Source of the DNA: Escherichia phage vB_EcoM_KAW1E185
DNA: 64,000 nucleotides
Direction: 5' to 3' (one strand)
Sequence record: NC_054922.1
A program made the translations under genes and the position numbers. The notes under the pieces were generated by a model. It was not told where the DNA came from. It made no database searches and saw only the letters and a list, made by a program, of their open reading frames with translations. Positions 16,885 through 63,699 of this stretch are shown one piece after another. Numbering within the stretch: the stretch's first letter is position 1; every line of letters begins with the position of its first letter.

Positions 16885-17634
16885 ATGGCAAACATTATTC
16901 GTTGTAAATTACCAGATGGTGTTCATCGTTTTAAACCATTTACGGTAGAAGATTATCGAGATTTTTTGTTAGTTCGAAACGATATAGAACATCGGTCACC
17001 ACAAGAACAAAAAGAAATAATTGCTGATTTAATTGCCGATTATTTTGGAGACTATCCGAAGACTTGGCAACCATTTATATTTTTGCAGGTATTTGTAGGG
17101 TCAATAGGTAAAACTAAAGTACCGGTCACATTTGTATGTCCAAAATGTAAAAAAGAAAAGACAGTTCCATTTGAAATATATCAAAAAGAATTAAAGGAAC
17201 CTGTTTTTGATGTAGCTAATGTTAAAATTAAATTAAAGTTTCCTTCTGAGTTTTATGAAAATAAAGCAAAGATGATTACTGAAAATATTCATTCCGTTCA
17301 AGTAGATGAAATGTGGTATGATTGGAATGAAATTAGCGAATCAAGTCAAATAGAACTTGTTGATGCCATCGAGATAGAAACATTAGAAAAAATTCTCGAT
17401 GCAATGAATCCTATTAATTTAACATTGCATATGTCATGTTGTAATAAGTATGTAAAAAAATACACTGATATAGTAGATGTGTTTAAGCTATTAGTTAACC
17501 CAGATGAAATATTTACTTTTTATCAAATCAATCACACGCTCGTAAAAAGTAATTATAGCTTAAATTCAATAATGAAAATGATTCCTGCTGAGCGCGGATT
17601 CGTATTAAAACTGATTGAGAAGGATAAACAATAA
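16885..17634 (+). CDS. 51: baseplate hub assembly catalyst gp51
   Basis: 249 aa, T4 gp51 length and position. Confidence 0.88.
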
Positions 17635-23443: not shown

Positions 23444-23474
23444 TTTGTGTTCCTCATGTTATGTAAGTAAAATT

Positions 23475-23504
23475 ATTATAACACAACACGAGGGACTTGT
23501 AAAC
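23475..23504 (-). promoter_or_regulatory. T4-type early promoter
   Basis: Minus strand GTTTAC, 17-nt spacer aagtccctcgtgttgtg, TTATAAT. Confidence 0.6.
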
Positions 23505-37163: not shown

Positions 37164-37191
37164 AAAGTCCTCATGTTATGTCAGTAAGACT

Positions 37192-37221
37192 ACTGTAACA
37201 CAACACGAGGGACTTGTAAAC
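37192..37221 (-). promoter_or_regulatory. T4-type early promoter for alc
   Basis: Minus strand GTTTAC, spacer aagtccctcgtgttgtg (identical to promoter at 23475-23504), TTACAGT. Confidence 0.55.
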
Positions 37222-46165: not shown

Positions 46166-46196
46166 AATAGTATCACACTACTACCCTTCTGTAAAC
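46166..46196 (-). promoter_or_regulatory. T4-type early promoter
   Basis: Minus strand GTTTAC, spacer, ATACTAT. Confidence 0.5.
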
Positions 46197-46605: not shown

Positions 46606-46836
46606 TTACTGTTCAATCAATCCCATGTAAAATTCTGCATCTTCAGCATCCATACCATCACAGTATTCATTAGCCATAAATCGTTCAAGAACTTCTAAAG
46701 GACCTTCAATAACAATAGAAAAATTGCAATAATTGGGATCATCATGAATACTTGTGATACTAAGTTCAGGATAACGATTACGAATAATTTCTTCAATATA
46801 TTCAAAATCAACGATGTCAATATCAACTTTAGCCAT
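46606..46836 (-). CDS. hypothetical acidic protein
   Basis: 76 aa from ATG 46836 with AGAGGA RBS. Confidence 0.55.
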
Positions 46837-46879
46837 ATTGTTTTCCTCTTTAATCATCAGCAGTATTGCCGATAGTTGT

Positions 46880-46909
46880 ATAGTACCACAGTATGCTTTG
46901 GTTGTAAAC
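46880..46909 (-). promoter_or_regulatory. T4-type early promoter (copy of the motA promoter cassette)
   Basis: Minus strand GTTTAC, spacer aaccaaagcatactgtg, gTACTAT; about 65 nt near-identical to 63454-63520. Confidence 0.6.
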
Positions 46910-46924
46910 CGTTCTGTGAAAAAA

Positions 46925-46962
46925 AAATTTTTGAAATAAAAAAGGGGACCTCTAGGGTCCCC
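46925..46962 (-). terminator. rho-independent terminator after gene 32
   Basis: Minus strand hairpin GGGGACCCTAGAGGTCCCC followed by T-run. Confidence 0.75.
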
Positions 46963-46984
46963 AATTAATTAGTAATATAATCTA

Positions 46985-47893
46985 TTAAAGGTCATTCAAA
47001 AGGTCATCCAGGTCCGTGTCATCAGCACTAGATGAACTGCCAGAGCTTGAGCTCATAAAATCATCTTCAGTTTTTGTTTTGAAGTCATCAACATTGAATG
47101 CATCCAAATCATCAGCAACTTTATCGGCTTTCTTAGCAGCAGTTGCTGCGGCACCACCCATAGCAGCAGTTCCCATAACTTGACTGAACTTAGTGCTCAG
47201 TTCTTCAAACGATTTGAATTTATCTTTAGAAGTCATTTCAGAAAGGTCAACCATTTGTTCGAACAGTTCTTTCTGGAAAGATTCATCATCAATGTTTGGA
47301 ATCGCAGATTGATTCAGGAATTTAGATTCGTCGTAGTTACTAAATCCAGAAACTTGTTTAACTTTCAGTACAAAGTTAGCACCTTCCCACGGACAAGTTA
47401 CATCAACTGGAGTTTCACCCATTTCAACATCAACCGCAATCATTGCATTGATTTTATCCCAGATTTTCTTACCGAAACGGTATTTAAATACTTTACCTTC
47501 GTTTTCTGGAGCAGCTGGGTCTTTTACTACAAGAATGTTAGCCCAGTAAGAAGTTTTACGTTTAACAAGACTGTACTCTTTATTGTCAGTGTTGTACAGA
47601 TCATTTTTACTAATGTATTGACATACTGGGCAAGAATCGTAATCACCGTGGGTAGATGAACAGTTTTCAATATACCATTTACCATTTTTCTTGAAACCGT
47701 GATTTACAAGAATTGCGAATGGTGCTTGTTCATCATTTTTAGACGGAAGAAAACGAATTACTGCTTGACCGTTACCCGCATTGTCGAGTTTCAGTTTCCA
47801 CTCGCCTTTATCTTCAGAAGAAAAACCACCTTTATTTCCAGCCAGTTTAGCCATTTGTGCAGCGAGTTCAGCAGTAGATTTACGTTTAAACAT
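46985..47893 (-). CDS. 32: single-stranded DNA-binding protein gp32
   Basis: 302 aa; [37 protein letters not shown] matches recalled gp32; zinc ligand region; acidic C-tail. Confidence 0.97.
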
Positions 47894-50183: not shown

Positions 50184-50213
50184 ATTATATACCATCCGAA
50201 TCTTAAAGTAAAC
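50184..50213 (-). promoter_or_regulatory. T4-type early promoter for rnh
   Basis: Minus strand GTTTAC, 16-nt spacer, TATATAAT. Confidence 0.55.
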
Positions 50214-50234
50214 AAGTATAAATACTTATTATTG

Positions 50235-50360
<126 letters not shown>

Positions 50361-50415
50361 ATTATATACCATCCGAATCTTAAAGTAAACAAGTATAAAT
50401 ACTTATTATTGAAAA
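50361..50415. repeat. exact 55-bp direct duplicate of 50184-50238 flanking the adapter (assembly join artifact)
   Basis: attatataccatccgaatcttaaagtaaacaagtataaatacttattattgaaaa occurs identically on both sides of the adapter. Confidence 0.9.
50394..50401 (+). promoter_or_regulatory. late promoter TATAAATA for gene 34 (second copy at 50217-50224 within the duplicated block)
   Basis: Exact TATAAATA about 35 nt upstream of gene 34 ATG. Confidence 0.55.
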
Positions 50416-62786: not shown

Positions 62787-63422
62787 TCACAGTTCAGATG
62801 CTACAGTGATTACTGCTTCAATGTTTTCTGCCGAGCGTTTAATGTCAAGATACACATTACCGTTTTTAGCGATTTTACATGACATTCCGATGTCAGTAAA
62901 TTTCTGAATATGATGTTCCATCATTTTATATCCAAAAATTCGCATATTTCCATTGTTGTTAATTTCAAAATTACGAATTCCGTGAGTGCGTTTTTCTAAA
63001 ATAGCGAGATAGTTACTGCGGTAAGTTTCAACCTTTTTAAGAACAAATCCATTTTCATCTAAAAGTTTTAACATGAGGTCTTTATCTTCTTCCATATCAG
63101 AAGTAATCTCGCGAGCTTTACGAGTTGCTCGTTTTTTCAGCAGTTCCGGAGCATTTTCCTGTGCGTATAAAGTTGCTGCGTTTGAAATAATATCCTGAGC
63201 TTCACCTGTAATGATTAATCCATCACCAGATTTCTCCACCAGGCCTTTTTTAATCAATACCCCAATATTACTATTAACTACTGCGTTACCTAAATCTGGA
63301 TGCACCTCACGAACTTCTGCAGCTGTAATGAAATCTTTCTTAGCAATAGTAATTAAAATCGCAGCAGTTTTTTCATTCAGAACATCGTTAGAAGCTTTGA
63401 TGATGTAAGTTACTTTAGACAT
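62787..63422 (-). CDS. motA: MotA middle-transcription activator
   Basis: 211 aa, T4 MotA length; MSKVTYIIKASNDVLNEKTAAILITIAKKDF matches recalled MotA; GGAG RBS. Confidence 0.93.
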   Translation of the reverse strand: MSKVTYIIKASNDVLNEKTAAILITIAKKDFITAAEVREVHPDLGNAVVNSNIGVLIKKGLVEKSGDGLIITGEAQDIISNAATLYAQENAPELLKKRATRKAREITSDMEEDKDLMLKLLDENGFVLKKVETYRSNYLAILEKRTHGIRNFEINNNGNMRIFGYKMMEHHIQKFTDIGMSCKIAKNGNVYLDIKRSAENIEAVITVASEL

Positions 63423-63463
63423 TTTCTAATCTCCGTAATTCTGTATCAGTAGTTGATAGTTGT

Positions 63464-63493
63464 ATAGTACCACAGTATGCTTTGGTTGTAAAC
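63464..63493 (-). promoter_or_regulatory. T4-type early promoter for motA
   Basis: Minus strand GTTTAC, spacer aaccaaagcatactgtg, gTACTAT. Confidence 0.6.
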
Positions 63494-63505
63494 CGTTTTA
63501 TGAAA

Positions 63506-63544
63506 AAATTTTTGAAATAAAAAAGGGAGAGCCGAGGCTCTCCC
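63506..63544 (-). terminator. rho-independent terminator upstream of motA promoter
   Basis: Minus strand hairpin GGGAGAGCCTCGGCTCTCCC followed by TTTTTTATTT. Confidence 0.7.
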
Positions 63545-63549
63545 TAAAA

Positions 63550-63699
63550 TTACTGCATGACTGTGATAACTGTCATGATAACACGTTGAATGCCGAACGC
63601 AAGAAGACCTCCTGCTACGGCTGGAACAACACCTACCCCCGCTAGTAAAATGCCGCCAGATACTAATGCAGCGCTTGTAATACCAATGAATGGACTCAT
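63550..63699 (-). CDS. small hydrophobic membrane peptide, 49 aa
   Basis: Hand-translated MSPFIGITSAALVSGGILLAGVGVVPAVAGGLLAFGIQRVIMTVITVMQ; ATG overlaps stop of upstream gene. Confidence 0.4.
   Translation of the reverse strand: MSPFIGITSAALVSGGILLAGVGVVPAVAGGLLAFGIQRVIMTVITVMQ

Follow-up and report, generated by a model that had tools for sequence, protein, structure and literature searches.

How do two intergenic regions 16.6 kb apart in a phage genome come to carry nearly the same sequence, and what is that sequence? The window (the whole 64-kb stretch of DNA analysed here) is a piece of a Tequatrovirus (T4-like) genome, collinear with the T4 map and with its early genes on the minus strand. 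Alignment of positions 46800-47000 with 63384-63584, together with a repeat finder (families D5 and D10), places copy A at 46871-46946 (76 nt) and copy B at 63455-63527 (73 nt). The two copies match at 43 of 43 positions in one block (46871-46913 versus 63455-63497) and at 19 of 19 in a second (46928-46946 versus 63509-63527). Between these blocks lie two substitutions (46914, C versus T; 46916, G versus A) and an A-run of nine residues in copy A versus six in copy B, a length difference that could be a homopolymer sequencing error. The preliminary description had proposed a near-identical repeat with 2-3 differences. The pairwise alignment confirms the repeat, with coordinates shifted by 1-3 nt, and the number of differences holds when the 3-nt homopolymer indel is counted as one. 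Allowing up to three mismatches, the 43-mer occurs at two sites in the window, copies A and B only, and it finds a match in 0 of 100 dinucleotide-preserving shuffles.

Copy A occupies the intergenic region between the stop codon of gene 32 (46985) and the ATG of frd.3 (46836), and copy B the region between the stop codon of motA.1 (63550) and the ATG of motA (63422). The interval from A to B contains genes 32, 59 and 33, dsbA, rnh, the tail-fibre genes 34-38, t, asiA and the arn genes. Identity to phage teqskov is 98.7% over the 2 kb surrounding copy A, and identity to phage teqhal is likewise 98.7% over the 1.1 kb surrounding copy B; copy B itself is 100% identical in teqhal. The features of the two loci are as follows.

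46985-47893, minus strand: gene 32 (ssDNA-binding protein), upstream of copy A; Pfam gp32 PF08804, 226 bits.
46944-46962, minus strand: gene 32 intrinsic terminator hairpin GGGGACCCTAGAGGTCCCC, then TTTTTTATTT; its last 3 nt lie within the repeat; predicted fold -14.3 kcal/mol.
46871-46946, minus strand: copy A, comprising the terminator T-tract, UP-like tract, -35, spacer and -10 of the frd.3 early promoter, to about +3; defined from the sequence, nhmmer 62.4 bits.
46903-46909, minus strand: copy A -35 region, GTTTACA; sigma-70 hexamer TTTACA at 46908-46903.
46886-46902, minus strand: copy A 17-nt spacer ACCAAAGCATACTGTGG, in the TTTACA register; a motA-type allele, unlike the T4/Lutter allele at frd.3.
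46880-46888, minus strand: copy A extended -10, TGG plus TACTAT; hexamer at 46885-46880, preceded by TG.
46606-46836, minus strand: frd.3, downstream of copy A; Shine-Dalgarno sequence AAAGAGGAAAA, ATG at 46836; Pfam Phage_FRD3 PF05798, 128.8 bits, and T4 annotation.
63550-63699, minus strand: motA.1 (49-aa hydrophobic protein), upstream of copy B; T4 annotation.
63524-63545, minus strand: motA.1 intrinsic terminator hairpin AGGGAGAGCCTCGGCTCTCCCT, then TTTTTATTTC; predicted fold -18.6 kcal/mol, z = -5.1.
63455-63527, minus strand: copy B, the motA early promoter and the preceding terminator T-tract; nhmmer 66.0 bits.
63487-63493, minus strand: copy B -35 region, GTTTACA.
63464-63472, minus strand: copy B extended -10, TGG plus TACTAT.
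62787-63422, minus strand: motA (activator of middle transcription), downstream of copy B; Pfam MotA_activ and MotCF, PF09114 and PF09158.

Read on the minus strand, both loci have the same order: a GC-rich hairpin, a T-tract, an A/T-rich tract (ATTTCAAAAATTTTTT), GTTTACA, the 17-nt spacer, TGG, TACTAT and ACAACTATC. The repeat runs from the last three bases of the hairpin to about 9 nt past the -10 element. Directly upstream of the -35 region both copies read TTTTTTATTTCAAAAATTTTTT(TTT)CA.., with the variant cacaGaac in copy A, as in copy A of teqskov, and caTaaaac in copy B. The leaders differ between the copies and are 30-40 nt long, each ending in a Shine-Dalgarno sequence and an ATG (AAAGAGGAAAACAATATG for frd.3 and ACGGAGATTAGAAAATG for motA). 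The Shine-Dalgarno sequence of motA contains GGAG at 63434-63431, and in T4 RegB cleaves the motA mRNA at the GGAG motif at this place (PMC2988021).

The hairpins are predicted terminators. Their stems, of 7 bp for gene 32 (GGGGACC...GGTCCCC) and 9 bp for motA.1 (GGGAGAGCC...GGCTCTCCC), are unlike each other, and each is followed by a T-tract; the repeat has in common only their last three bases and the T-tract. The first description of this repeat had a hairpin following each copy, which is correct in plus-strand coordinates; on the transcribed minus strand, the hairpin lies upstream of the promoter. It would therefore end the transcript of the gene before it, gene 32 or motA.1, rather than the one that starts at the promoter. 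A search of Rfam at a relaxed threshold around copy A returned no structured RNA family, only a chance snoRNA match (E = 0.67).

A MotA box (TGCTT) on the plus strand within the spacer is judged a chance occurrence, as it has no suitably spaced -10 element and would direct transcription antisense into motA.1 or gene 32. Two plus-strand open reading frames over the repeat (41 aa, 46814-46939; 61 aa, 63460-63645) are considered spurious, being antisense to the gene array and overlapping the terminator. In phage PinkRuby (PP925839.1, positions 17522-17626 of our extract L032), a 35-codon 'hypothetical protein' CDS has been deposited across the frd.3 promoter/terminator cassette (copy A); this CDS is probably spurious.

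The T4 early promoters, which form the Pe class, are reportedly listed by Liebig and Rueger in 1989 and by Miller et al. in 2003. They have been described as 'uber' UP/-35/TGn/-10 promoters with additional consensus regions (Hinton 2010, PMC2988021). All four sequence elements (UP, -35, TGn and -10) are present in copies A and B. The string GTTTAC-N17-G-TACTAT noted earlier on the minus strand occurs in both and corresponds, in the sigma-70 register, to TTTACA-17-TACTAT with a TGn. The assignment to early promoters is supported by position as well: both copies are intergenic, directly follow an intrinsic terminator on the early (minus) strand, and precede a Shine-Dalgarno sequence and ATG by 35-50 nt. 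The orthologous positions in T4 are 146,837-146,912 (frd.3 copy) and 163,635-163,707 (motA copy), with the same UP/-35/TGn/-10 architecture, and copy B differs from the T4 motA cassette at 2 positions over 73 nt. In accordance with this homology and with the sequence elements, copies A and B are probably active promoters in KAW1E185. The predicted transcript starts are an A at about 46873-46877 for copy A and an A at about 63457-63461 for copy B, both on the minus strand.

What is known of the T4 genes fits this assignment. MotA is an early product in T4 (PMC2988021), and frd.3 RNA ranks with the most abundant of the NAD-capped RNAs in T4 (bioRxiv 10.1101/2024.04.04.588121); we infer that the capped species is the primary transcript from the frd.3 promoter. 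A cassette subfamily tied to the NAD-capped RNAs as a group (dda.1, srd, 56, 55.6 and frd.3) was considered and rejected: T4 8.5-18.5 kb, the region that holds dda.1, srd and 56, is without a member (best nhmmer score, 8.3 bits).

The combination of terminator and promoter places the repeat in a published class. PeSLs (promoter-early stem-loops) are composite terminator/early-promoter cassettes, described first in RB49/phi1 (Arbiol 2010, PMC2839356) and then in T4/PST (Comeau 2014, PMC4122927). The RB49/phi1 work includes promoter and terminator reporter assays, mini-circles and cassette-bounded insertions (PMC2839356). The T4/PST form is TTTACW-N17-TAYWAT, with a stem-loop just upstream, an AT-rich tract, and a Shine-Dalgarno sequence plus ATG at the 3' end (PMC4122927). 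Both copies agree with every sequence feature of this form: they are intergenic, carry a predicted stem-loop terminator before the AT-rich tract, match the T4/PST consensus promoter with TTTACA-17-TACTAT plus TGn, and have the ribosome-binding and start signals at their 3' end. As with PeSLs, the cassette is repeated in the genome, with indels, replacements and allele swaps between close relatives, namely the insertion at motA and the mosaic alleles given below. Unlike typical PeSLs, which tend to lie in hyperplastic regions, copies A and B adjoin conserved core genes (32 and motA), within a replication and tail-fibre block and around essential genes. A minority of PeSLs lie in core modules (PMC2839356), and the hyperplastic location is a tendency rather than a strict criterion. 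The element is thus one already known, a T4 Pe promoter or PeSL orthologous to T4's own cassettes.

Copies A and B are the only members of their family in the window. A profile built from 35 distinct cassettes of the family scores 66 bits for B and 62 bits for A with nhmmer, and 10.9 bits for the next best site. Outside the window the family is large. Searched by BLASTN, copy B matches at 2727 places spread over 539 phage records, or some five per genome, and a single IMG/VR T4-like contig holds the 18-mer TGGTACTATACAACTATC (TGn, -10 and first transcribed bases) at as many as eight loci. The other loci of the 18-mer precede small early genes, whose PHROG families are all of unknown function. 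The looser pattern GTTTAC-N16-18-TAnnnT occurs 12 times in the window versus 2.6 expected. The ten occurrences besides A and B are all on the minus strand, and their anchored pairwise identities are mostly 0.6-0.67 versus 0.91 for A and B. Two other near-identical pairs are among these ten sites.

A second pair of near-identical early-promoter cassettes, on the minus strand at 23451-23504 and 37168-37221, is 91% identical over 54 nt, through the leader to the Shine-Dalgarno sequence, and reads GTTTACAAGTCCCTCGTGTTGTGTTA(T/C)A(A/G)T...ACATAACATGAGGA. Its first member precedes a 96-aa open reading frame (ATG 23443) and its second a 168-aa open reading frame (ATG 37163), which appears to be alc; a published alc qPCR primer nearly matches it. 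A further early-promoter-like site, GTTTACAGAAGGGTAGTAGTGTGATACTATTACCCTATC, lies on the minus strand at 46167-46196, just downstream of frd.2 and upstream of an 80-aa open reading frame (start 46141). It belongs to a different cassette subtype, TACTATTACCCTATC, which is also repeated in relatives.

Copies A and B could in principle have converged on one sequence as strong sigma-70 early promoters subject to like selection, without any exchange between them. An extended consensus is indeed common to all T4 early promoters (PMC2988021), and many loci conserve the UP/-35 and -10 blocks. Scored with the family profile, however, the other early promoters in the window stay at or below 11 bits, where A and B reach 62-66 bits, and the 17-nt spacer is part of no consensus. 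Between GTTTAC and TACTAT, A and B match at 18 of 18 nt, yet the family spacer has at least six very different forms, and in close relatives with 98-100% identical flanks the frd.3 spacer matches at just 9 of 18. Convergence is therefore a very improbable explanation of the likeness.

The spacer is where the two loci usually part. In T4 and in phage Lutter, the frd.3 spacer is AAGCATAAAGCTTTATG and the motA spacer AACCAAAGCATACTGTG, and the UP/-35 and -10 blocks are common to both loci. IMG/VR relatives carry ATCCCTGTTCTTCCATG-like spacers at frd.3. The motA locus has a nearly invariant spacer across about 500 genomes, and at frd.3 there are at least four spacer alleles; most of the evidence for such statements on the population comes from BLAST summaries of the INPHARED phage set, IMG/VR contributing 4-5 Tequatrovirus contigs with both loci. 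A motA-type spacer at frd.3 is found in the window and in teqskov, PinkRuby and bov9_1. A 65-nt query spanning the spacer, the -10 element and the frd.3 leader has a 100% match in 11 records and a match of at least 96.9% in about 28 of 494 phage records; at frd.3 the motA type is thus the spacer of a minority, roughly 30 of the 494. The 11 exact matches represent 10 distinct phages (teqskov, PinkRuby, bov9_1, bov10K1, R5505, Lv5cm, SH-2, EH2, T-01 and vb_GEC_SH_GT).

These records bear on the possibility that the likeness arose in assembly, with reads of one copy collapsed or mis-assigned onto the other. The window does contain a clear adapter artefact elsewhere, at 50184-50415. The exact motA-type frd.3 junction, however, is present in all these independently sequenced phages, and unique flanks anchor the 43-nt identical core, since a sequencing read is longer than that core. 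We give almost no credence to an assembly origin of the repeat. The artefact itself lies in the rnh/gene 34 intergenic region and consists of a 57-nt poly-T (50239-50295) followed by an adapter stretch (50296-50360) with an Illumina P7 adapter CAAGCAGAAGACGGCATACGAGAT, an index CGATCGGT and a Nextera read-2 adapter GTCTCGTGGGCTCGGAGATGTGTATAAGAGACAG. The insert (50239-50360) is flanked by an exact 55-nt duplication (50184-50238 is the same as 50361-50415), which contains a GTTTAC..TATAAT promoter-like site. The whole looks like an assembly or library artefact.

Likeness in the flanks does not predict the frd.3 spacer allele. Over the two 450-nt flanks Lutter has identities of 97.8% and 99.8% with the window, and its spacer matches at only 9 of 18 positions; bov9_1 is 97.1% and 90.5% identical over the same flanks, and its spacer matches at 18 of 18. 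The cassettes are mosaic in a wider sense as well. Spacer and leader (5'-UTR) alleles occur in many combinations across the collected cassettes: the motA-type spacer is paired with three different leaders, and the leader AACTACTGATACAGAA with at least four spacers. The PinkRuby motA promoter, GTTTACAACCAAAGCATTCCATGGTACTATTACCCTATC, is a chimera that joins a motA-type spacer to the -10 region of another early promoter type; its 3' half has its source in the TACTATTACCCTATC subtype. These mosaic spacer and UTR alleles point to short-patch gene conversion between cassettes.

Whole cassettes might instead have moved, with a PeSL mini-circle or a copy of the motA-locus cassette integrating at the gene 32/frd.3 junction. 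Both mini-circles and insertions bounded by cassettes have been described for PeSLs (PMC2839356), and the motA locus supplies a case of its own. An extra 75-aa open reading frame (MKFKIENEIVKAK..., PHROG 10955, function unknown) lies between the motA.1 terminator/B cassette and motA in the IMG/VR loci L039, L040 and L043. Insertions of the same reading frame in phages ELT1 (MZ892903.1) and ECML-123-2 (OL631480.1) were judged from an alignment gap of about 340 nt. It is bounded downstream by a second early promoter, with the leader CTATCAAATAAATGAACTGAAAC common to both cassettes; this two-cassette bracket, found in L040 and L043 and in ELT1 and ECML-123-2, is the cassette-bounded insertion that the PeSL model predicts. 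However, every genome examined has a cassette between gene 32 and frd.3, and its terminator, T-tract and 5' UTR are the same throughout; the spacer alone differs, no extra DNA accompanies it, and copy A retains its locus-specific cacaGaac upstream of the -35 region, unlike the caTaaaac of copy B. Two hybrid-junction searches found no flank of the motA locus (its UTR, AACTACTG..., or the motA.1 hairpin) at frd.3. Integration of a whole cassette thus seems improbable here.

Deletions cut into three cassettes in one IMG/VR genome, IMGVR_UViG_2974787500_000001 (loci L038, L017/L039 and L030). The frd.3 deletion takes away the final codons of gene 32 together with its terminator, so that gp32 has a new C-terminus (...DDTDLFQKIFS*). 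The motA.1 deletion removes the UP tract and the -35 region and joins the terminator straight to the promoter spacer; the third locus has a similar fusion. This genome could represent a laboratory variant, real cassette-mediated deletions or an assembly problem.

A reciprocal crossover between A and B would join the gene 32 terminator through a cassette to motA, or the motA.1 terminator through a cassette to frd.3. Such hybrids are found in 0 of 50,697 phage records. This is expected, because the interval holds essential genes and a 16.6-kb duplication would exceed the headful. The proposal that long identical promoter modules serve as substrates for recombination and modular exchange, which is exactly the published PeSL hypothesis, is supported by the spacer swapping, the mosaic alleles and the cassette-bounded insertion at motA. 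Between A and B themselves the exchange seen is limited to short non-reciprocal patches, with no reciprocal event.

Taken together, the evidence argues strongly for one explanation, which we regard as very probably correct: copies A and B are early cassettes of the PeSL/T4 type, and the spacer of the frd.3 copy has been replaced by a short patch from a motA-type cassette. The mechanism would be as follows. At each locus the intrinsic terminator would end the upstream transcription unit (gene 32, or 52-motA.1), and host RNA polymerase with sigma-70, unmodified or Alt-modified, would use the cassette immediately after infection, so that the transcripts of frd.3-frd and of motA would begin at an A some 7 nt past the -10 element. 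Members of the family have invariant UP/-35 and -10/initial-transcribed blocks in common, and their spacer and 5'-UTR segments exist as discrete alleles. In the lineage of the window, the frd.3 spacer would have been exchanged for one otherwise specific to the motA locus. Such a replacement would be a short, non-reciprocal patch made by gene conversion or template switching, with the conserved blocks providing the homology. The replaced patch is estimated at no less than 13 nt and no more than about 49 nt, the upper bound following from the fact that copy A keeps its own cacaGaac variant and its own leader from +9.

Replacement of the frd.3 spacer in this lineage would explain why the two copies are near-identical here but diverge in the spacer in T4. 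The window copies share a 43-nt block that includes the spacer, unlike the two T4 copies, which share blocks of 41 nt and 20 nt. Elsewhere in the sampled genomes the motA-type spacer occurs at the motA locus alone, which makes this locus the likely donor and transfer from motA to frd.3 the likely direction. The motA-type allele at frd.3 may have had a single origin and then spread between phages by ordinary homologous recombination.

T4 itself offers a parallel in another block. Its frd.3 and motA cassettes (NC_000866; extracts L003, 2338-2412, and L004, 2636-2708) carry the same variant of the UP-like tract, tttttAaaataaaa on the plus strand; the corresponding sequence is tttttGaaataaaa in both copies of the window and in most other genomes. 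A T4-specific T is present in both T4 copies (attttAaaaa, plus strand), and C/G in both window copies. This common variant within one genome hints that the UP-tract block also evolves in concert, although it is a single case.

The closest precedents differ from the present case in what is exchanged. Unlike the events in the PeSL reports, no excision or insertion is seen between A and B; the pattern suggests short-patch, non-reciprocal exchange instead. Arbiol 2010 (PMC2839356) does not use the term 'gene conversion' in its main text. In the flanks of the T-even ip genes, as far as Repoila et al. 1994 is represented by its citation in PMC2839356 and PMC4122927, repeated early promoter and regulatory blocks provide the homology for swaps, as they would here. 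Within the same limits of that source, whole genes are swapped between the ip cassettes, whereas at A and B it would be the promoter spacer alone.

In itself the finding is of little importance: the two copies are orthologues of T4 early promoters, and the class of recombinogenic promoter-terminator cassettes to which they belong has already been published. The value of the finding is modest and lies in the clean natural example: in a context that is 98-100% identical, a spacer appears to have been overwritten from a copy 16.6 kb away, across essential genes. The comparison of sequences thus provides evidence for short-patch concerted evolution between two core-region cassettes, a modest addition to what is known: such cassettes would evolve in concert by short conversion patches, besides the excision and insertion events stressed in the PeSL papers. 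For annotation pipelines, repeats of this kind in T4-like genomes are to be read as regulatory cassettes and not as mobile-element ends or small genes. A bolder idea, which we consider rather unlikely, is that the spacers are regulatory alleles that set firing kinetics, shut-off timing or sensitivity to Alt/ModA, and that short-patch gene conversion moves them between loci. If this were true, the motA locus would be a protected donor and frd.3 a promiscuous recipient, and the frd.3-frd-td nucleotide-metabolism operon in the lineage of the window would have come under motA-like immediate-early control.
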